NCBI GenBank assembly: GCA_035347995.1
Contig: DAOPQD010000005.1
Location: forward strand, 6,433-70,432
Length of the DNA: 64,000 nucleotides
Reading direction: 5' to 3'
DNA from: Anaerolineae bacterium
GTDB lineage: Bacteria > Chloroflexota > Anaerolineae > B4-G1 > SLSP01
Shown: piece by piece, positions 3,601-48,085 of the stretch
Position numbering within the stretch: position 1 is the stretch's first letter
Layout of the letters: each line of letters begins with the position of its first letter
Made by a program: the position numbers and the translations under genes
Notes under the pieces: generated by a model
Databases searched by the model: none
What the model saw: the letters and a program-made list of their open reading frames with translations, nothing else
What the model was told of the DNA's origin: nothing

Positions 3601-5055
3601 CGTGATCGAGCGGCTCAGTTCGTTGAGCAACATCAGGGTGTTCAGCTGCAGCCGCAGGTTTTCCACCAGCCGGTTGTTGGCGATGACCACCCCAATCTGC
3701 GCCGCGAACAGCTCCAGGACTTCCAGGGAGGCCCGCGTCGGCGCCCGTCCGTCCAGAGGCTCGTCCACCGACAGATAGCCGACGGCATCGCCCTGCGGGC
3801 CATACAGCGGGACCAGCAACAGGTCCTGCGGATGCCACATGCCGGGGCGGCGAGCCTCAGGCAGGGCCACCTCCACCTCAAACACGTCCAGTTCCCCACG
3901 CCAGATGTGTTGCTGTTCAGCCGGAATGTAATAGCAGTTGCCGATGCGGAATTGCTCTTGCAGCAAGCGTGCGATCTGCGACCAGGGGCGGCGCACCTGC
4001 TTGAGGCGCTCCAAATCCACCAGGGGCATCCCTGCCCCGGCGACGCGCCGCACCATCTGCCCCTCAATCACGCTGATGAGCACGATCTCATAGCCGACCG
4101 CTTCTTGTGTGGCATACGCCATGTCCAACAGGGTCTCTTCGAGGGGGCGATCGGAACGCATCGTCCGCGTGGCTTCCAACAACAAGCGCATCTGCTCGGC
4201 GCGTTCCCGCACAAAGTTGCCCCGCAGCAGTTGCTCCTGATAGCGCCGATCGTTTCCCACCGCCAGCGCCGTTTCCGCCGCCAGCCCGTCCATGAAATCA
4301 ATCGCCGCCGGATTCAACGCCTGCGGTTGGCGGCAGTGCAGCACGATGGCCGCTGCCAGCTGCCCCTCATAAAAGACGGGCGACCACAATTCAGTCTGCA
4401 TCCCGGCCTGGTATGCCGGCGTCGGGTGCAGCTCGGCGAGATTGGGAATGTAGCGAGTGACTGGCTGCCGCATGAAAGCCACCAGCGAAGGGTCGGTCTC
4501 AGCATGGGCCAGTAGCTCCTCGTAAGCGGCGGAGGTGGCCTCCGGATAGCCCTGTGCCAGCGCCAGGGTAGGGAGCTCGTCGCGCCAGAGCCAGACCATC
4601 CCCGCATCCGCGTGAGTGAACCGCCGCGCTTCTTCCAGCACCAATTGGAGAATCCGCCCCAGTTCCAGCGTGCTGGCGATCTCCTGGGTGATGCGCCGCA
4701 AGGCGGCTTCCGAGGCAACGCGCCGCGCGACTTCCTGCTCCGCCGCCTGGGCGCGCCGGGCCTGCGCTTGCCATGCCGACGCCAGCGTAGCCCCGGCACC
4801 CGCTAAAAAGGCCGCCACGGCCCAATGCAACCACAGCGTCGGCGTGCGCCACACGGCCAACACCGCCAGCGCGAATAAAATGAGGGCCGTCAGCCAGACA
4901 CGCCGTCGCCCCTGCAGGCCCCCCAACACCGCCGGCAGGATCAACAGGTACAGCCCCACGGGCAGCGCGCCGCTATACAGCAGCAGCAACGCCAGCGCGC
5001 TGCTCAGCAACACCGCGCCCCATCCAGGCTGGAAAGAAGTCAACCGCTCACGCAT
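682..5055 (-). CDS. hybrid sensor histidine kinase (TM, multiple GAF, PAS, HisKA, HATPase_c, two receiver domains)
   Basis: 1457 aa. Hydrophobic N-terminus and repeated GAF-like blocks. H-box SHELRTPMTSV; N/G boxes NLVGNAFKYT, DTGIGI, GGTGLGL. Two C-terminal receivers (VLVVEDDPEV.., VLVVDDDRDT..). Confidence 0.9.
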   Translation of the reverse strand: MRERLTSFQPGWGAVLLSSALALLLLYSGALPVGLYLLILPAVLGGLQGRRRVWLTALILFALAVLAVWRTPTLWLHWAVAAFLAGAGATLASAWQAQARRAQAAEQEVARRVASEAALRRITQEIASTLELGRILQLVLEEARRFTHADAGMVWLWRDELPTLALAQGYPEATSAAYEELLAHAETDPSLVAFMRQPVTRYIPNLAELHPTPAYQAGMQTELWSPVFYEGQLAAAIVLHCRQPQALNPAAIDFMDGLAAETALAVGNDRRYQEQLLRGNFVRERAEQMRLLLEATRTMRSDRPLEETLLDMAYATQEAVGYEIVLISVIEGQMVRRVAGAGMPLVDLERLKQVRRPWSQIARLLQEQFRIGNCYYIPAEQQHIWRGELDVFEVEVALPEARRPGMWHPQDLLLVPLYGPQGDAVGYLSVDEPLDGRAPTRASLEVLELFAAQIGVVIANNRLVENLRLQLNTLMLLNELSRSITTKLDLSLVLNTVAQAVTNLLGYDYATVYLQARGQTALTPRASSGYDLSLLGEGLQVEPGAGLVGAVVESGMPLALDDVRGEPRFTPGPLPVGSALLVPLQVAGRTVGVLSAERREAGILEPLQVATLTMLADQISVAVENAQLFEEVKNFSAELERRVEERTAELAEALNSLRTERDRSTILYEIASGLVASLDIDRVLHKTVSMLKDAVRAERATVLLLDQNTGHLQQRASVGGGKSVPPGGVRAPYKRNEGLVGWVLTNRQSAMVPDVRLDARWIPIEDDTRSVLAVPITAGDETVGVIFLHSPEVDAFDTGDQRLVEAAAVQVGHALNNAELYRLIREQAERVGSMLRTQQNEAARSQAILEGIADGVLVADARGKIILFNAAAERILTLNRAQAMGRSLSEVLGLYGDKVRGWLEQIAVWEAEPGSYQSGDFLSERLELGRQVVSMHLSPVISPIREFLGVVAAFRDITAEVEADRAKSEFVSTVSHELRTPMTSVKGYVDLLLMGATGPLTDMQVQFLNIIRNNTDRLTSLVNDLLDMSRIEGGKVELHCQPVDMAELIRQVAVTLTPKIEEKGLQIRTVLPEGLPLAYGDPDRMVQILTNLVGNAFKYTPLGGEIAIYAYVREEMFHIAVADTGIGISPEDQSRIFSRFYRVDNPLVSEAGGTGLGLAITASLVQMHGGQISVESEPGEGSIFTVTFPLAEGEATAPVGRPPAGLGANAAATVLVVEDDPEVAEMLRLTLEHEGHRVVVAASGEAALRLARQEQPDLISLDIRLPDLDGFEVLQLLKRNPDTASIPVVIVSVVFDQDRGLRLGAVDYFTKPVDEARLLQVVNRVLAGKGTVLVVDDDRDTLTLLRTALRAQGLQVRTVTRGERALRMAQEQPPSLILLDLKLPGMDGYEVLQQLKRHPATANIPVVVMTGFAEPGNGSASAMKALGATRFVTKPFSMEELGEEISRLVESADGNKE

Positions 5056-5123: not shown

Positions 5124-6017
5124 TTAAGATTTCCGCGCCCGTCGGCGCGCCTCGGCTGCCGCCTCCGTCACCTCACGAATGTCAGTGAAAGGGCCCTCGT
5201 CGGCTGAAAGCATGCCGATCTGCAGGTGCATCAAGGGCACATGCTTTTCCTCACCCTTGCTGTCATGCACCACCAGGTATCCCTGCATTCGGGTCATGAA
5301 GTCGTAGTGCGTCCCCACATTCTCCTCGAAGCGCCGTTCGAGGTCCTCTTTGAGCTGCGGCATGATCGCTTTGCGGGTAATGACAATGAAGTTATCGCCT
5401 CCGATATGACCGATGAAATCCTCCGGATAGCCGAGACGCTCCACGGCCTCATTGAGCACCAGCGCCGTGAAGCGCAAGACCTCCTCGCCCGCCACGAAGC
5501 CATACACCTCGTTAAAGGCGTCCAGCCCCGGAATGCCGATGTAGAGGATGCCCCAATCCGCCAGGCGCAGCAGCTGCCGCAATTGTTGCTCGATCAGCCG
5601 GCCGCTCGGCAGGCCGGTCGTCGGGCTCGTCAGACTCTCGATCTCGGCGCGCTTGATGGTGTTCCGCACGCGCAACCGCAGCTCTTCCACGTCGAAGGGC
5701 TTGGTGATGTAGTCATCGGCACCCAACTCCAGGCCGTGGATTTTGTCGCTGCGTTCGTCTTTCTGCGTGAGGAAAAGAATGGGGATATGACTGGTACGCA
5801 GGTTGGTACGCAGCTGCCGGCAGACTTCATACCCGTCAATGTCGGGAAGCATGATGTCCAGGACGATCACATTGGGGAGCAACTGTCGCGTTGCCTCCAG
5901 CGCATCCTGTCCCCGCGGCGCAACATGCACTTCGTACTCCAGGGATCTGAAATACAGCTGTAACATGTTGGAGATGTCGGGATCGTCTTCCACTACCAGA
6001 ATACGGCCTTCACTCAT
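5124..6017 (-). CDS. response regulator with GGDEF-type output domain (signature degenerate: GGDNF)
   Basis: 297 aa. Receiver motifs ILVVEDDPDI, LDIMLPDIDG, ITKPF. The C-terminal cyclase-fold domain has IGGDNFIV where GG(D/E)EF is expected. Confidence 0.85.
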   Translation of the reverse strand: MSEGRILVVEDDPDISNMLQLYFRSLEYEVHVAPRGQDALEATRQLLPNVIVLDIMLPDIDGYEVCRQLRTNLRTSHIPILFLTQKDERSDKIHGLELGADDYITKPFDVEELRLRVRNTIKRAEIESLTSPTTGLPSGRLIEQQLRQLLRLADWGILYIGIPGLDAFNEVYGFVAGEEVLRFTALVLNEAVERLGYPEDFIGHIGGDNFIVITRKAIMPQLKEDLERRFEENVGTHYDFMTRMQGYLVVHDSKGEEKHVPLMHLQIGMLSADEGPFTDIREVTEAAAEARRRARKS

Positions 6018-13458: not shown

Positions 13459-13659
13459 GCTGAAAGAATCAAATTTGTAATACGTACCGCCTTTGCCCCC
13501 TATCCCCTTCCCCCCGCGCGCGCGGGGGGAAGGGGACTTTTTTGCCCCCTTATTTTTTCTCCCCCTCCCCAGTGCGTGCACTGGGGAGGGGCAAAAACTA
13601 CCGGTCACAAAGGTTCGTCCATTGCCGTCTGGATAGTTGACGCCAGGTTGAACAGTTAC
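13459..13659 (+). repeat. modular GC-hairpin repeat, copy A (about 200 nt)
   Basis: Colinear with 47836..48085. Shared blocks: GCTGAA.., CTTTGCCCCCTATCCCC, hairpin CCCCTTCCCCCCGCGCG..GGGGGGAAGGGG + T-run, CCCCTTATTTTTTCTCCCC, a CTCCCC..GGGGAG hairpin, ..ACAAAGGTTC.TCCAT.GCCGTC..GCCAGG.TGAACAGT.AC. Confidence 0.8.
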
Positions 13660-22304: not shown

Positions 22305-24824
22305 TCAATACCCCACGTAGATCTCCTTCAATAGCTTCGTCGTCGCGCCCTTGGCGCCCGGCTCGCTTTCCCCCACCGGCCCCACGCACGAGGGACAGCC
22401 CTCGGTGCAGGGACAAGTCTGCACGCGCTCCAGCGCCGCCGCAGCGATCTGCTCCCACAGCCCCAGCAGGCGGGGACTCAGGCCCACGCCGCCCGGCGCG
22501 GTGTCGTAGAGGATAATGGAGGGCTGCCCCGATTCCGCATCCCGCGCCTGCACCGAGGCCCCCAGGTCACCGGGATCGCACATGAGGAATACGGGCGCGA
22601 GATTCCGCAGCAGATAGGACAGGCCGCTCAGCGCCGTCCGCGCGCCGCGCGCCCGCTCCACTTTGGCGTGACAGAGCGCACACAACGTCAGCAGGTTTTC
22701 GGGGGCGTGCGCCAATCGCAGCGCCACCGAGGGCGGATACTGCGCGAGAAACGTCCGCAGCGGCGTGAGGTGATGCACCTCCAGCGGCGCTTCGGGGCGG
22801 GCTGGCGCCCCGCACAGGCGGCAGGTGTGGGCGTCGCGGGATAAAATCGTCTCGCGGATTTTGGGCCACTCCGGGCCATAATCCAGCGGCGCGACATGCA
22901 CCCCCTCCTCTGCCAGCAGCTCTACCAGCGTCTCCGCCAGCGTCACCCGGCAGGCCTCCGTCTCGAGCAGCTGCTCCGGCAGATCCATGTCCCCCCAGCC
23001 GAGGGTCTCGTGATTGGCCAGGCTCACCCGCCGGTACGAGGTGGGTTTGCTGTGGACCAACACCTCCTCATCAGTGAGCGTGAGCGCCCCGCGCGGCAGC
23101 GTCTCCCGCAGCGCCAGTCGTTCCACGGAAATCGCCGCTGCCGCGAGGGTATAGTAATCATAGTCGCCGGGCTGCGCCTGCGCCAGCCCGCGCTCCCAAT
23201 CCAGTGCCGTGATGAGATAGGGCGTCCCGCCATGGAAGTAGATCGCCCCCTCATGCACCATGGCCGCGGCGCTTGGACGGTCCATGAGGCCCAGCGTCTC
23301 CCCCGCCGTCGTCTGGATGATCACGTTGTCGGCGGTCGTCGTGCGCAACGAGACGCTCTGCGCAGGATAAGTCTCCCCCACCCAGGTAAAGCGCTCCGCA
23401 CTGCGGTGGAGCACGCCCTCCGCACTGAGTGCTTCGAGCAACGGCGCCACATCCGGCAGCGAGCCGAAAGATTCATCGCGCTCGAAGGGCAGCTCAAAGG
23501 CGGCGCAGGCCAGATGCGAGCCGAGCACCGCCAGCGCGTCGGCGTTCAGACGGGCCTCCTCCGGCGAACGCACGAAGAAATACTCCGGGTGCGTCACCAG
23601 GTATTGATCCAACGGCGCCGGCGTAGCGATCAACACCGACAGCGAGACGCCGGCCCGGCGTCCGGCGCGGCCCATCTGCTGTCGCGTCGCCGCGATGGTG
23701 CCGGGATAGCCCACCAGCACCGACGCATCCAGCGCGCCAATGTCAATGCCGAGCTCCAGGGCGTTGGTGGCGACCACCACCCGGGTGCGGCCCTCGCGCA
23801 GATCCCGCTCGATGGTGCGGCGCTCGTGCGGGAGATAGCCGCCGCGATAGCCCTGGATCACCTCAGCCGGGAAGCCGGCGCGCGCGGCCCGTTCCCGCAG
23901 CTCGCGCAACAGGAGTTCCACCGTCAGCCGCGATCGCGCGAAGACGATAGTCTGCACGCCGGCCTGCAACAGCCGCAGGGTGAGGAACACGGCCTCGGCG
24001 CTGGCGCTGGCGCGCAACCCCAGCTCCGCGTCCAGCAGCGGTGGATTGTAGCACAGCACATGTCGCCCGCCGTAGGGCGCCCCATCGGCCTCCACCGGGG
24101 TGACCGGCGCCTCCCACAGGGATTCGGCCAGCTGCTGTGGATTGGCGATCGTCGCGGAGGCGCCGATGAAGCGCGGCGCCGCGCCGTAGAAGGCCGCCAC
24201 ACGGCGCAGGCGACGCAACACGTTGGCGATGTGGCTGCCAAAGACGCCCCGGTAGGTATGCAGTTCATCGAGCACCACGTAGCGCAAGCCGCTCAGGAAC
24301 CGCAGCCATTGGGTGTGGTGCGGCAGAATGCCCAGGTGCAGCATGTCGGGGTTGGAGACGAGAATGCGCGCCTCCTTGCGGATGGCGGCCCGGCGGCTCT
24401 GCGGGGTGTCGCCGTCGTAGGGGCGCAGGGCGAGCGGTGCCTGCAGCTGGCCGATCCAGGCTTCCAGCGCCGCGATCTGATCGTGGGCCAGCGCCTTGGT
24501 GGGGAAGAGCAGCAGCGCGGTGGCGGTGGGATCGCGCAGCAGCGTGTGGAGCAGCGGCAGCGTGTAGCCCAACGTCTTGCCGGAAGCCGTCCCCGTGGCG
24601 AGCACCACATTTTCCCCGCGCAGGACCGCTTCCACGGCGCAGGCCTGATGGGTGTAAAGCGCAGGAATGCCCAGCGCGCGCCCGGCGGCGCTGAGCCGCG
24701 GATCCAGCTCGGCGGGCCAGGTGACGGTCTGCGCCGCCTGCGCCGGTAACGTGCGCCATGCTGTCACATTGCGGATGAAGCGCGGGTCCTCACGCAGTAC
24801 GGAGAGCAGGGATTCCAGAGCCAT
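22305..24824 (-). CDS. DExH-box helicase of the MrfA/YprA (DUF1998) type with an internal HNH-nuclease-like insert
   Basis: 839 aa. Walker A TGTASGKT, VLDELHTY, helicase C motifs (GYRGGY, TNALELGIDIG, QQMGRAGRR). HNH-like CRLCG..EVHHL..NLLTLCALCH at nt 22668-22823. C-terminal Cys cluster CPCTEGCPSC. Confidence 0.9.
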   Translation of the reverse strand: MALESLLSVLREDPRFIRNVTAWRTLPAQAAQTVTWPAELDPRLSAAGRALGIPALYTHQACAVEAVLRGENVVLATGTASGKTLGYTLPLLHTLLRDPTATALLLFPTKALAHDQIAALEAWIGQLQAPLALRPYDGDTPQSRRAAIRKEARILVSNPDMLHLGILPHHTQWLRFLSGLRYVVLDELHTYRGVFGSHIANVLRRLRRVAAFYGAAPRFIGASATIANPQQLAESLWEAPVTPVEADGAPYGGRHVLCYNPPLLDAELGLRASASAEAVFLTLRLLQAGVQTIVFARSRLTVELLLRELRERAARAGFPAEVIQGYRGGYLPHERRTIERDLREGRTRVVVATNALELGIDIGALDASVLVGYPGTIAATRQQMGRAGRRAGVSLSVLIATPAPLDQYLVTHPEYFFVRSPEEARLNADALAVLGSHLACAAFELPFERDESFGSLPDVAPLLEALSAEGVLHRSAERFTWVGETYPAQSVSLRTTTADNVIIQTTAGETLGLMDRPSAAAMVHEGAIYFHGGTPYLITALDWERGLAQAQPGDYDYYTLAAAAISVERLALRETLPRGALTLTDEEVLVHSKPTSYRRVSLANHETLGWGDMDLPEQLLETEACRVTLAETLVELLAEEGVHVAPLDYGPEWPKIRETILSRDAHTCRLCGAPARPEAPLEVHHLTPLRTFLAQYPPSVALRLAHAPENLLTLCALCHAKVERARGARTALSGLSYLLRNLAPVFLMCDPGDLGASVQARDAESGQPSIILYDTAPGGVGLSPRLLGLWEQIAAAALERVQTCPCTEGCPSCVGPVGESEPGAKGATTKLLKEIYVGY

Positions 24825-38752: not shown

Positions 38753-39775
38753 TCAGAACAGCGTTCCCTGCTCGGTGCGGGTGTAGGGAAGACCCAGGTG
38801 CTCATAGGCCAGGCGCGTCGCCGTCCGACCGCGAGGCGTGCGATCGAGGAACCCCAGCTGCAAGAGATAGGGTTCCACCACGTCCATGATGGTGTCGGCT
38901 GCTTCGCCGATGGAAGCGGCGATGGTTTCCAGGCCCACGGGGCCGCCATCGAATTTCGCGATGATGGCGCGCAGCACGCGGCGGTCGAGGTCATCGAGGC
39001 CCATGGCGTCAATCTCCAGGAGCGCCAGCGCCTCGGCAGCCAGCCCGGCGGTGATGACGCCATCGCCGCGCACCTGCGCGTAATCGCGCACCCGCCGCAA
39101 CAGGCGCAGCGCCACGCGCGGCGTCCCCCGTCCGCGGCGGGCGATCTCATCGCGTCCTTCCGGCGCCATCTGCACCTTCAGCGCGCGCGCGGCCCGTTCC
39201 ACAATCTCGGCCAGCGCCGCCTGCTCGTAGAAATCAAGCCGGTAGACGGCACCAAAACGGGTGCGCAGCGGAGCCGAAAGCAGCGCCAGCCGTGTCGTCG
39301 CGCCGATGATGGTGAAGTGCGGCAGGCTCAGGCGCACCGTCCGCGCGCCGGGCCCCTGCCCAATGACGAGGTCCAGCGCGAAATCCTCCATGGCCGGATA
39401 GAGGATCTCCTCCACCACCTTGCCCAGGCGATGAATTTCATCAATGAAAAGCACTTCTTTTTCGCGCAGGTTGCTCAGAATGGCGGCGAGGTCGCCGGGG
39501 CGCTCGATGGCCGGCCCGGCGGTGATGCGAATGGGCGCGCCCATCTCGTTGGCGCAGATGTGCGCCAGGGTCGTCTTCCCCAGGCCGGGGGGACCGTAGA
39601 AGAGCGTGTGCTCGAGCGCTTCGTTGCGTCCCTGCGCCGCCGCGATAAGGATGCGGAGATTCTCACGCACGCGCTCCTGTCCGATGAGATCATCCAGGTG
39701 TTGCGGACGCAACGCCCGATCCAGGGCCGCCTCTTCCGGTTCAGCTTCGGGTGATAGATTGCGATTATGACTCAT
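38753..39775 (-). CDS. ruvB: Holliday junction helicase RuvB
   Basis: [31 protein letters not shown]-terminal winged helix. Confidence 0.95.
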
Positions 39776-39867
39776 CGTGTTTTCCAGTATTTGCGCACAG
39801 GTTCAGCGCCGCAGACATGCCCGCCTTCCATCCGGTTCGAGAGGACCGGGACTGCCTGAAATCGAAA

Positions 39868-40559
39868 TCAAGCCCCACACCATTCGCGGCGCAGGATGCC
39901 GTAGAGCACCATGTCGCCGACTTCCCCATCGCGGAACAGGAATTCGCGGAAAACGCCCTCGCGCCGGAAACCCAGGCGCTCGCAGTCTGTCGGAGCAAGA
40001 AATGCCATCCCTAAATTGGCGGATTTTTGCGGCAGAAGTGGGGCGCAAGGCCCGAACCAAAGGTTAAGATCGTGCTTGAGTGGGACAGCACTCCGCAAAA
40101 CGTGTTCTCCCCGACAGACTGCTCGTAGAGCGCGATTGCCGGCGCATTGTCGGCAAAGACGGTGAGCTGTACGCGGCGCAAATTGAGCTCGCGGAAGGCA
40201 AAATCCAGCCCCAGCGTCATCGCGGCATAGCCGTAGCCCTGCCCGCGATACCCCGGCTCGCCGATGCCCAGGCTGATCCAACCGGTGCCATGATTCCAGA
40301 AAATGCCGTCCACTTCCAGGTAGCCGATGAGCGCGTCGTTTTCCAGAAGCCGCACCGCAAACGGGAACGCCGTCGGCGATTGTTGCTGCTCCTCGATGTA
40401 CTTGATCACCTCGGCGACGGTTTTGGGCATCGCCGGGGAGGCGTCATACCGGCGCATGAAGTCCGCGTCCTCATACCAGCGGGCGATGAGCGGATAATCT
40501 GCCGGGGTCACTGCCGCCAGCCGTACCCGCTCATCGCGCAGGAGGGGGACACAGCTCAT
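39868..40559 (-). pseudogene. GNAT (RimJ/RimL-like) N-acetyltransferase interrupted by a 138-bp insertion
   Basis: The N-terminal half (MSCVPLLRDERV..AIALYE) is in one frame and the C-terminal half (LGFRREGVFREFLFRDGEVGDMVLYGILRREW) in another. Removing 39983-40120 plus one GCTCG copy restores ..ALYERLGFRREG.. in frame. Confidence 0.75.
39983..40120. mobile_element. MITE-like insertion (10-11-bp terminal inverted repeats, 5-bp direct flank duplication)
   Basis: cagtctgtcgg (39983-93) and ccgacagact (40111-20) are reverse complements. GCTCG occurs at 39978-82 and 40121-25. No ORF inside. Confidence 0.6.
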
Positions 40560-40954
40560 GCCGCCGCCTTGGCCGGGGGTCGAGACAAGGCCCACTCCGG
40601 CGGGCGCTGCGGCAGGACATAGAGGAAATAGGTGCAGGGCAACGCCACGAGGGGTAGCACGACGCAGCCAATCCCCAGCAAGACGCGCGCCGTATCGTTG
40701 CCGGCCCGGTTCAGGATGATGTGGCTCAGGTAGAAGAGTTGCAGCGCCAGCCGGAACCACGAGCCGCCGACGGCGATGAGCATGAAGATCATGAAGATGA
40801 AGAAGAAAAGCGGCCCTGGAGTGTCGCCCCGCCCCCCCGTCAGCGGCGCGAGCGCCATCAACATCAGCCACGTGACAAACATCGCCAGCGGGTAGATCAC
40901 CACCCATAGGGTCGCGATTCCCACCAGGATCTTGAGCGGTTGCGAGAGTTTCAT
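40556..40954 (-). CDS. hypothetical integral membrane protein
   Basis: 132 aa, about 4 TM segments, ATGA overlap with the GNAT start. Confidence 0.6.
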   Translation of the reverse strand: MKLSQPLKILVGIATLWVVIYPLAMFVTWLMLMALAPLTGGRGDTPGPLFFFIFMIFMLIAVGGSWFRLALQLFYLSHIILNRAGNDTARVLLGIGCVVLPLVALPCTYFLYVLPQRPPEWALSRPPAKAAA

Positions 40955-41402: not shown

Positions 41403-41894
41403 TCAATGTTGACGCAGAAACTGACCCAGGTCAGGGTTCTGCTGAATGGCAAAATTTCCATGCCCGAAGGCGTGCAGCAATCTCCGCGATTGAGGGCTGT
41501 GAAATTGGGGAGCAGAGCCGCGCGTGCAAATATACGCCTTCCAAGTCGTTTGTTGTCGAAGCGGTTGAGCATGATTAGCGTTGAAATGCGGCGCAAGCGA
41601 TTGCAGCGTGTTGATGACTTGCTCGATGGCATGCGTGATATCGCTTCCCTTCAGCTCTACAATGCAAATGGTAGTGGACGCGCTTCCCTCAGGCGTGTAG
41701 AAAACCAATAGATCGCTCAAGGCGCCGCAGATGTGCAGTTCGGCACGCAAGGCACAGGGACGATTTGTCTGATCGTCAATGGCAAACCATTTCCAAGTCT
41801 CACCCTGGCGCGGGGTAACGCGCACGACAATACCTCTTTCTCTGTAAGCATTTCCTGGGTGCCGACAGCGTTCGCGCATGGTTGAACAAGGCAT
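41403..41894 (-). CDS. hypothetical 163-aa protein with a PD-(D/E)xK-like motif (predicted restriction-endonuclease fold)
   Basis: ..LSDLLVFY-x13-ICIVELKGSDITHAIEQV... 2 nt downstream of the ATPase stop. AT-richer than its flanks. The ORF call is firmer than the nuclease assignment, which rests on motif spacing only. Confidence 0.55.
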   Translation of the reverse strand: MPCSTMRERCRHPGNAYRERGIVVRVTPRQGETWKWFAIDDQTNRPCALRAELHICGALSDLLVFYTPEGSASTTICIVELKGSDITHAIEQVINTLQSLAPHFNANHAQPLRQQTTWKAYICTRGSAPQFHSPQSRRLLHAFGHGNFAIQQNPDLGQFLRQH

Positions 41895-41896
41895 CG

Positions 41897-43315
41897 TTAC
41901 TCAACCGCTCCCACAACATCAAGGACATCAAAATAAATTTGAGAAATACGGTCAGAAACCCGCCCAAAAGTGCCCCAGTCAATATCGCCCTGTTCATCCA
42001 GAATGCTGTGCGCGGTCCCCTTCTCAAAAAGGTAAACCGCAACTTGTGCCTGTGAGAGTAAGGCCGCCTCACGTTTCAGGAAGAAATGCTCAGCGGCTTC
42101 AGCAGGTCTTGGATGGCGTGCACCGGCTATCAGGTTGGCCAGGTGATCCACCACATACGGGCTATGGGTAGTGGCCATCACATTGATCCCGGCATTGACC
42201 ATCATGCCGAGGAATTCCACTAACCGTACCTGGGCTTCCGGATGAAGATTCATTTCGGGTTCATCAATCACCACTAAATCGCCTTCAGTGGCCAAATACC
42301 GCAGATAAAATACCAGCGGCGCCAATTCTTTGACCGCTGAAGAGGCTGCATTGATACCCAATGCCCCGCCAGGAATCGAGAAATGGATGCGTCGTTCGAT
42401 ACTTGGCTCCGGAGTGGAAAAGTCAACCTTTCCCCCCAATAAGTCATGTTCCAAAATTTCGGCAAGCCGCAGGTATTCGTTGATCTCAGGCTCTTGGCGC
42501 GCCTGCTGTTCCCGTTGAACGCGCGTGCCAGTCAAAAGAGCGGTCGTCATCCACCCCTGGTAAATAGTAATAGGAAAATTCACCATGGTGCGTTTTAGAT
42601 TCTCTGTCAAATCCGCATAAGATTGCATAGTCGAGCCATACCCAGGCAAGCCCCGCAATAATTGTCCAACTTGTTCTAACTGGGGGAAAAAACCACTACG
42701 TTCTGTGGGAAACGGCCAAACGAAGGCATATAAACAACGGTGTAACGCGGCAAAGATATTTCGGGCCACAAATTCACGGATGATGGTAGGATGTAGATTC
42801 GAGGCTTCGCCTTCGGTGTAAAAGTACAACGTTGTATTGCCAGTTTCTTTTAGCGCGCGCAAAACACCGCCGACCTGGTCTTTGACTTTCAGCTCAGCTA
42901 ATTTGTCCCATTTTTCTGAAGTATAATCTACTGTGACTTGTAGCTGTGTTTGTTTGAAATTGGTAACTGGCGCGCCAATCACGGTTGGGAGCCAATCTTG
43001 AGCAAGTCTGGCAATGCCGTCAAAGTACATCTCCCCATAGCGTTCCGCAAACGTCAATAAATCAACCTGAGAATTTCCTTTTCTTGATAATTCTTCAATA
43101 ATAGTTTCTATAACAGGATAATTCTCTGAAGTTTTTTGTTCTTTGAACGCATTTAAGTATTCTAACCAGCCATAACCGAATAGCCCCAGAAGGTTAGCAA
43201 TGGCATTTGCGGTCCAGGTTTTTCCCGCATTGCTAGGGCCAACAAAAATCGTCAGTGGGCGCAGTGCTATCTCGGCGTTTTCAACCGGGCCTAAATTTCT
43301 AATACTTATTTTCAT
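41897..43315 (-). CDS. ABC-type (AAA_15/AAA_21-like) ATPase with long helical insert
   Basis: 472 aa. Walker A GPSNAGKT, Walker B/D-loop LVVIDEPEMNLHP, H-loop ATTHSP. AT-rich 5' end. Confidence 0.85.
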   Translation of the reverse strand: MKISIRNLGPVENAEIALRPLTIFVGPSNAGKTWTANAIANLLGLFGYGWLEYLNAFKEQKTSENYPVIETIIEELSRKGNSQVDLLTFAERYGEMYFDGIARLAQDWLPTVIGAPVTNFKQTQLQVTVDYTSEKWDKLAELKVKDQVGGVLRALKETGNTTLYFYTEGEASNLHPTIIREFVARNIFAALHRCLYAFVWPFPTERSGFFPQLEQVGQLLRGLPGYGSTMQSYADLTENLKRTMVNFPITIYQGWMTTALLTGTRVQREQQARQEPEINEYLRLAEILEHDLLGGKVDFSTPEPSIERRIHFSIPGGALGINAASSAVKELAPLVFYLRYLATEGDLVVIDEPEMNLHPEAQVRLVEFLGMMVNAGINVMATTHSPYVVDHLANLIAGARHPRPAEAAEHFFLKREAALLSQAQVAVYLFEKGTAHSILDEQGDIDWGTFGRVSDRISQIYFDVLDVVGAVE

Positions 43316-47835: not shown

Positions 47836-48085
47836 GCTGAAGATTGAGAATCAACTTTTGCCCCCTATCCCCTGGCCCCTTCCCCCCGCGCGCGGGGGGA
47901 AGGGGAACTTTTTTTGTGGGGTTTTGCAGGCGGGCTACGCCCGCCTGCAAAACCCCTTATTTTTTCTCCCCCTCCCCAACGGCGCAAACGCCGTTGGGGA
48001 GGGGGCAGGGGGTGGGGCAAAAGCTACAGCTTACAAAGGTTCATCCATCGCCGTCGAGCTACCTGGCGCCAGGCTGAACAGTCAC
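47836..48085 (+). repeat. modular GC-hairpin repeat, copy B (about 250 nt, carries one extra hairpin module)
   Basis: Colinear with 13459..13659. The extra perfect 17-bp hairpin at 47918-47956 is absent from copy A. The right end overlaps the stop codon of the pentapeptide gene. Confidence 0.8.

Follow-up and report, generated by a model that had tools for sequence, protein, structure and literature searches.

A 139-bp MITE-type element interrupting a GNAT acetyltransferase gene in an Anaerolineae population

Introduction

Correia elements of Neisseria and Nezha elements of cyanobacteria are MITEs of 100-160 bp with terminal repeats and hairpin transcripts, located in or beside genes, and the Correia elements duplicate TA. 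MITEs of the IS630/Tc1-mariner type (Stowaway-like) have CAGT-type termini, a CTAG target context and a size of about 100-150 bp. IS630 and IS870 themselves insert into CTAG and duplicate TA, and a central dinucleotide other than TA is unusual for IS630/Tc1. Ends starting with GG or GA are typical of the IS5 group (ISfinder tables).

For IS5, the TSD logos give 5'-YTAR-3' with a length of 4 bp (PMC5009759). ISXo1 of Xanthomonas oryzae uses a 4-bp CTAG or TTAG target and shows frequent precise excision restoring gene function (bioRxiv 10.1101/2023.04.27.538605). Among the IS4-related "emerging" families, ISH3, reported from archaea only, has the end consensus CRGT and direct repeats of 4-5 bp, its duplications being typically 5 bp and flanked by A and T; IS701 has duplications of exactly 4 bp and the end consensus ---YACT-Y--YR (De Palmenaer et al. 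2008, PMC2266710).

In the window (the whole 64-kb stretch of Anaerolineae DNA that was analyzed here), a GNAT gene is interrupted by a short element that shares traits with each of these systems. Like IS5-group MITEs, it is small, has terminal inverted repeats and no transposase, and belongs to a family with a 4-bp, CTAG-preferring duplication. Unlike them, the window copy sits at CGAG instead of YTAR, 7 of the 28 relatives with matched flanks have CTCG or CGAG, and the termini begin with CAG, not GG or GA; no IS5-family partner of the element was found among the fetched loci. The CAGT... ends and the 4-bp duplication fit the CRGT ends and 4-5-bp repeats of ISH3, whereas the A...T flank preference was not seen and the elements studied here all lie in bacterial MAGs. 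The 4-bp duplication also fits IS701, but the IS701 end consensus does not fit the element. With IS630/Tc1-mariner MITEs it has in common the CAGT-type termini, the CTAG context and the size, yet with a 2-bp duplication the window copy would have duplicated GA/TC, and 9 of the 28 matched relatives would likewise be non-TA. It resembles Correia and Nezha elements in size class, terminal repeats, hairpin-forming transcript and insertion in or beside genes, while its termini are unrelated to theirs and no sequence similarity is expected. Overall, the element fits ISH3 in its ends and repeat length, and IS5 in its target preference.

Results and discussion

Structure of the element

The features of the locus are listed in Table 1. 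The terminal inverted repeats are perfect over 11 bp, or over 12 bp with the ambiguous G/C at 39982 and 40122, and extend imperfectly to about 17-19 bp. This agrees with the 10-11 bp given in a preliminary description of the sequence, which had also noted the internal ttttgcgg/ccgcaaaa repeats; its MITE-like insertion of 138 bp is likewise recovered, with the length corrected to 139 bp. On the minus strand, the sequence reads GCG CTC TAC GAG, then CAGTCTGTCGG...CCGACAGACTG, then CGAG CGC CTG GGT.

Table 1. Features of the interrupted GNAT locus (positions in the window).
Feature	Position	Strand	Remark
MITE, 139-bp non-autonomous, without transposase coding capacity	39983..40121		Equals the 143-nt gap against orthologue L054 minus one duplication copy
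Left terminal inverted repeat CAGTCTGTCGG	39983..39993	+	Same 11-mer terminates 47 elements in other genomes
Right terminal inverted repeat CCGACAGACTG	40111..40121	+	Perfect complement of CAGTCTGTCGG
Target-site duplication copy 1, CTCG (gene strand CGAG)	39979..39982	+	4-bp length from family statistics
Target-site duplication copy 2, CTCG (gene strand CGAG)	40122..40125	+	End of codon 145 and codon 146 (GAG) of GNAT
Internal 8-bp inverted repeat TTTTGCGG / CCGCAAAA	40025-32 and 40093-100		Contributes to the long hairpin of the whole element
GNAT 5' part, codons 1-146 (M1...E146)	40122..40559	-	ATG overlaps stop of upstream 132-aa ORF (ATGA)
GNAT 3' remnant, codons 147-182 (RLGFRREGV...WCGA) and stop	39868..39978	-	Aligns with solved GNAT structures over the junction
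Current ORF: 146 GNAT residues and 36-aa element-encoded tail (QSVGENTF...KNPPI)	40011..40559	-	Stops at TAG inside the element
46-aa ORF (MAFLAPTDC-ERLGF...)	39868..40008	-	ATG in the element, 2 nt past the upstream TAG, in frame with the 3' remnant
ruvB, next gene downstream, context only	38753..39775	-	Not part of the element

The longest internal frames of the element comprise 46-48 codons, and their sole match was the GNAT product itself. The insert had been described as lacking an ORF, which holds for transposase coding; it does, on the other hand, supply the TAG (40013-40011) at which the truncated ORF ends, and an ATG (40008-40006) that opens a 46-aa ORF in frame with the 3' remnant. 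An Rfam scan of 39600-40600 (E up to 10) left the element unmatched and gave three weak chance matches in the flanks. Additionally, no sigma-70-like promoter was detected inside or near the element, and terminator-like matches occurred only at the 3' end of the GNAT gene.

As RNA, the element was computed to fold into a long hairpin of -55 to -58 kcal/mol (z -2.5 to -3.1), and the computed fold of its single-stranded DNA has -30.6 kcal/mol (z -2.7). A hairpin between short direct repeats is a classical substrate for transposase-independent precise excision by replication slippage, and such an excision would restore the GNAT gene, as the preliminary description noted.

In agreement with the preliminary description, no other copy of the element was present in the window, even with 3 mismatches allowed over 17 nt, and the two 11-mers are the only near matches to the terminal motif there. 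A control is provided by positions 22400-22411 and 22547-22558, where the 12-bp arms CCTCGGTGCAGG and CCTGCACCGAGG pair perfectly across a 135-nt spacer inside an intact 839-aa ORF; this repeat arose by chance, and a MITE cannot be deduced from inverted repeats of this kind alone. Because an inverted repeat alone does not exceed chance, the case for a MITE rests on combined evidence, and its significance comes from a trio of observations, namely that a duplication flanks the repeat, that the gap relative to orthologues is exactly 143 nt and that relatives exist elsewhere.

The interrupted GNAT gene and its orthologues

The insertion falls exactly at the boundary of codons 146 and 147 in the minus-strand GNAT gene. 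A 143-nt deletion, in any of three equivalent partitions, produces a single 182-aa ORF with the junction ...NAPAIALYE/RLGFRREGV... and a full-length GNAT profile match, bearing out the earlier proposal that a RimJ/L-type GNAT has been split and that precise removal restores its frame. The coverage of Pfam Acetyltransf_3 changes from 1-133 in the gene as it stands to 1-138 of 138 in the restored product (E 1.5e-21), and that of Acetyltransf_4 from 2-131 to 2-154 of 155. The restored GNAT aligns over the junction with solved GNATs, for example with residues 91-177 of 2vi7, and PDB GNAT matches reached down to 1.4e-15. In an alignment with ten homologues, the junction ALYE/RLGF (motif LYE.LGF) fell in the most conserved block, in which L144, Y145 and E146 are invariant and L148, G149 and F150 nearly invariant. 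The AlphaFold model of the restored protein (pLDDT 87) has the expected order of strands and helices and places residue 146 inside helix 139-148 (alpha4), while the last two long strands of the predicted fold, 151-162 and 165-175 (beta6 and beta7), are encoded by the 36 codons of the 3' remnant. With its full-length Acetyltransf_3 match and a modeled GNAT fold including the acetyl-CoA loop, the restored protein is predicted to be a RimJ/RimL-like GNAT.

Gene callers reported the current 182-aa product in four contigs carrying the insertion (L001, L002, L004 and L005), and the database protein P0003 is the same product; the 46-aa gene was called in L001, L003, L004 and L006. Judging from the gene break, the acetyltransferase is most likely inactive, because helix alpha4 is broken, a nonsense tail is attached and the beta6/beta7 codons are orphaned.

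The closest full-length homologues of the GNAT are 82-84% identical and uninterrupted, and the names of the homologues suggest Anaerolineae. At the locus of one of them (P0002), the upstream order of MutS, a Rnk/GreA-like gene, a 132-aa gene and then GNAT is the same as in the window, and the DNA alignment with this orthologue (L054) contained one clean 143-nt gap, at the element plus one CGAG copy. The extra nucleotides are thus no conserved coding sequence of GNAT orthologues, a case that the preliminary description had considered, as the orthologues are without the insertion. The empty site that it had suggested looking for in related GNAT genes is clean in L054, whereas all six sampled strain contigs carry the element. 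No intact GNAT allele closer than 84% identity was found among 5.8 billion protein clusters.

Strain distribution and age

Six independent contigs carry the insertion (JGI 3300025708, 3300009675 and 3300006593; NCBI GCA_029565275.1, GCA_040364335.1 and GCA_002069935.1). The ruvB product is identical in sequence on 20 contigs; at all six places fetched the element was present, and the distance from the GNAT stop to ruvB was 236 nt. Compared with the window, L001 and L004 show no difference over 19-21 kb and L002 has 5 differing positions, while L003, L005 and L006 show 0.6-0.7% divergence over 8-19 kb. The diverged strains L003 and L006 have one substitution inside the element (window 40028), and in both of them the GQGYGY acetyl-CoA loop of the interrupted GNAT is shortened in frame by 6 nt. 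Between strains, 4 synonymous and 2 non-synonymous changes occur in the GNAT 5' fragment, a number too small to demonstrate decay or to rule it out, and the 3' remnant contains no stop, frameshift or substitution.

Since strains 0.6-0.7% apart share the insertion, it predates the divergence of the sampled strains. The best reading is that it occurred once, before these strains diverged, and is now fixed. The recent age assumed in the preliminary description is accordingly doubtful, considering also the single substitution in the element and that no intact allele was found.

The nucleotides absent from L003 and L006 are GGCTAC at window positions 40233-40238, one unit of a tandem GGCTAC-GGCTAT, with which Gly-Tyr is lost from GQGYGY. 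This is the sole coding-region indel in the 19 kb compared.

Relatives in other genomes

When 596 Gb of sequence, with one genome for each species, was scanned for CAGTCTGTCGG-N(102-132)-CCGACAGACTG, 47 loci were obtained, compared with a chance expectation estimated at about two matches; one of the loci (L043), without a duplication, looks like such a chance match. The hosts of these relatives belong to Chloroflexia, Thermoflexales, other Chloroflexota, Alpha- and Gammaproteobacteria, Verrucomicrobia, Synergistaceae, Desulfovibrionaceae and Magnetococcales, and include a Mycobacteriaceae MAG. Identical 4-bp flanks were found in 28 of the 47 relatives, where about 0.2 would be expected by chance, and consisted of CTAG (18), CTCG (4), CGAG (3) and one each of TTAA, GTAG and CAAG; in another 14 relatives, the 4-bp flanks differ at one position.

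The preliminary description had proposed a 5-bp duplication, GCTCG. This repeat is indeed present at 39978-39982 and 40121-40125, but its fifth base already belongs to the right inverted repeat, as the terminal G, and a 5-bp repeat in the same partition occurs in only 6 of 47 relatives. Such a frequency is what a freely varying fifth base would give, and the target duplication is thus CTCG in the window, 4 bp long. CGAG/CTCG is a minority target site of the element family, and the window copy sits there.

In the Yes70-08 MAG there are 26 copies, and 24 of these, located at different sites, reach 97.8% identity or more. Transposition of elements with such ends is evident from these near-identical copies. 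Chloroflexota-type relatives have the extended ends CAGTCTGTCGGAGAGAA... and ...TCTCTCCGACAGACTG in common, with unrelated interiors, as is usual where MITEs have arisen independently of each other from related insertion sequences. Relatives with the same termini and duplications were also found in the intergenic DNA of many genomes. A literature search for the 11-mer terminus returned unrelated primer sequences only, and BLASTN of 18 concatenated family members and one Acidovorax member against 72,556 plasmids gave no real match; a match on a Halomonas plasmid (H4) was rejected as a relative, being without the family termini.

Further peculiarities were noted among the loci of this collection. 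A Chloroflexota MAG contig (L052, DAIMXP010000069.1) contains two family members, at 4815-4963 and 5187-5335, about 220 bp apart. One of them has a variant terminus, CAGCCTGTCGG/CCGACAGGCTG, on both ends, and the terminal repeats have therefore changed together. In the Yes70-08 MAG, a repeated segment lies at L021 4441-5703, L036 2060-2636 and L051 215-955; translated comparison gave stretches of 48-77 aa with 66-98% identity, and the segment may be a different repeat or mobile element.

Search for further copies and an autonomous partner

An exact scan of JGI metagenome contigs with the 20-nt left end, its flank set to skip the GNAT locus, found one chance coding-region match; the scan needs an exact end and misses a quarter of the possible flanks. 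A search with the six-frame peptides of the element against 5.8 billion protein clusters, which detects only copies under called ORFs, found only the truncated GNAT (P0003). Combined, these results suggest that the element is a solitary copy in this lineage, and it is probably immobile at present. Because no further copy of the window subfamily was found, its status as a MITE rests on relatives in other genomes and not on copies in this one.

The insertion had been taken to imply an active or recently active partner in the genome. We recovered no further copy and no transposase-bearing element with these termini: none of about 150 fetched loci contained a full-length element with these termini and a transposase gene, and an all-against-all ORF comparison of the 47 family loci identified no multi-copy transposase. 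Terminus-pattern scans of viral contigs gave mostly chance matches inside genes (e.g., L055 and L059). The search proposed earlier, for an IS with the same inverted repeat and a 5-bp duplication, led only to three fragments at contig ends (L056, L057 and L058), in a family whose duplication is 4 bp. These viral-collection contigs carry apparent real element ends with CTAG flanks, all truncated where the contig stops, which is common for IS copies that are repeated. BLASTN of the three putative IS ends against 72,556 plasmids gave no real match.

In L056, an ATG (MSTPR...) lies about 55 nt inside the element end. In L057, an ORF ending in ...LAYNCKRLHNLRAA and a stop codon terminates about 50 nt before the element end and CTAG, with 14 C-terminal residues available. 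The two fragments are hints of coding relatives. The 14 residues (...AYNCKRL) are, as we take it, similar to the ends of DDE_Tnp_1 (IS4/IS5-type) transposases and not to those of IS630. The parent is most likely an element of the IS4/IS5 superfamily with a 4-bp duplication.

A zinc-ribbon ORF adjoining a family end in L044 was rejected as a partner, as it is part of an IS1-family element nested there. Homologous IS1 elements are bounded by inverted repeats of their own (GGGAGTGTT...), and this repeat also separates the L044 ORF from the family end; the L044 peptide gave no match in a protein search. In this Magnetococcales MAG contig (JADGAP010000268.1), positions 1-428 represent a longer family relative interrupted by the IS1-family insertion sequence, whose N-terminus is InsA-like with a zinc ribbon and whose own inverted repeat is GGGAGTGTTAACC...; the contig begins inside the insertion sequence.

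Origin of the insertion and alternative explanations

The 139-bp segment is very probably a non-autonomous cut-and-paste (DDE-type) MITE that inserted once at CGAG and is now fixed. In the transposase chemistry that we infer, an enzyme supplied in trans would bind the conserved termini (CAGTCTGTCGGA...), make a 4-nt staggered cut at CGAG between GNAT codons 146 and 147 and join the element ends, and gap repair would then generate the 4-bp target duplication. The insertion would thereby break helix alpha4, leaving a 146-aa N-terminal fragment with a 36-aa nonsense tail and orphaning the codons of beta6 and beta7.

The same sequence could be partitioned as a MITE of the IS630/Tc1-mariner type, 141 bp long with 12-bp repeats (GCAGTCTGTCGG), in a C-NN-G target of which the central 2 bp (GA/TC) were duplicated. 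The 12-bp inverted repeat is perfect, and at CNNG targets the 2-bp and 4-bp models predict identical sequence; the mismatched flanks, counted by hand, need about 11 extra changes with a 2-bp and about 14 with a 4-bp duplication, which is non-discriminating. The TTAA/TTAA and GTAG/GTAG flanks, however, fit a 4-bp duplication with the element ends unchanged, the central dinucleotide is TC, GA or AA at the non-TA third (9 of 28) of matched sites, and the C-terminus in L057 was judged closer to DDE_Tnp_1 ends. We consider this type of element unlikely. That the 139 nt are instead removed or skipped at the RNA or translation level, as a small intron, a translational bypass or a programmed frameshift, is next to impossible. 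The CGAG on both sides could in principle provide take-off and landing codons (GAG), and the element is predicted to fold into a stable hairpin, but it matched no Rfam family, introns included, it is much shorter than a group I or II intron, the would-be take-off codon is not followed by a stop, and the occurrence of the same termini and duplications in intergenic DNA is the mark of a DNA transposon and not of a recoding signal specific to one gene. An assembly or chimera artefact, with the insertion absent from the organism, was a concern of the preliminary description and can be set aside, because six independent assemblies, from different samples and assemblers, carry the identical structure; the strain-level polymorphism around and inside the element also contradicts it, and its probability is negligible.

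Another reading concerns the fate of the gene. The 182-aa and 46-aa products might be translated by reinitiation at TAG-GG-ATG inside the element and reassemble into an active two-piece enzyme, which would explain why the locus has been retained intact. The ATG at 40008 is in frame with the remnant and 2 nt past the upstream stop, the 46-aa ORF was called in four assemblies, and the remnant is undamaged among strains, with a similarity to orthologues that roughly equals that of the remaining protein. Yet fewer than one change would be expected in 111 nt at 0.7% divergence, and the intact remnant therefore says nothing on selection. Furthermore, the ATG has no Shine-Dalgarno sequence at normal distance, the break inside helix alpha4 adds 36 and 9 foreign residues, and the 6-nt GQGYGY deletion of the variant strains fits relaxed constraint at least as well. 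A functional two-piece enzyme is very unlikely on these grounds. Also very unlikely is a broader proposal, in which the elements of ~125-155 bp ending in CAGTCTGTCGGA...TCCGACAGACTG would form an undescribed multi-phylum MITE superfamily whose transposase would not be among the readily recognised partners, none having been recovered here, and the fixed insertion in this lineage would have created a stably retained two-piece GNAT gene (TAG-GG-ATG) and not a dead one.

Other features of the window

Two further regions of the window were recorded. At 41403-43315 (minus strand), a 472-aa AAA_15/AAA_21 ATPase, which matches the defence models PD-T4-4_A (E 5e-49) and PDC-M47A (E 1e-46), precedes a 163-aa protein that belongs to no Pfam family and matches only PDC-M29B, weakly. 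Both genes are located between mutS and the Rnk/GreA-like gene and are missing from the orthologous locus L054; the small gene beside the ATPase varies by strain, with 158, 163 or 140 aa, or is not called. This is probably an inserted two-gene anti-phage cassette. In addition, intergenic DNA at 13503-13597 and at 47876-48005 contains clusters of perfect GC-rich hairpins with T runs behind them. The two clusters have sequence in common, e.g., CCCCTTCCCCCCGCG/CGCGGGGGGAAGGGG and CTCCCCCTCCCCA..., and look like a repeated terminator-like or REP-like module of 2-3 hairpins.

Conclusions

The disruption of the GNAT gene by a MITE insertion is a real but ordinary feature of this genome and matters little except for annotation. 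A single GNAT pseudogene interrupted by a mobile element is the proper annotation of the locus, in place of the present calls of a 182-aa GNAT and a 46-aa hypothetical gene; the insertion also offers a convenient marker of the lineage in this digester-type Anaerolineae population. At the level of the family, the terminus CAGTCTGTCGGA together with the CTAG-biased 4-bp duplication defines a group of MITEs in several phyla, and this terminus could be used for repeat masking or for finding the parent insertion sequence.
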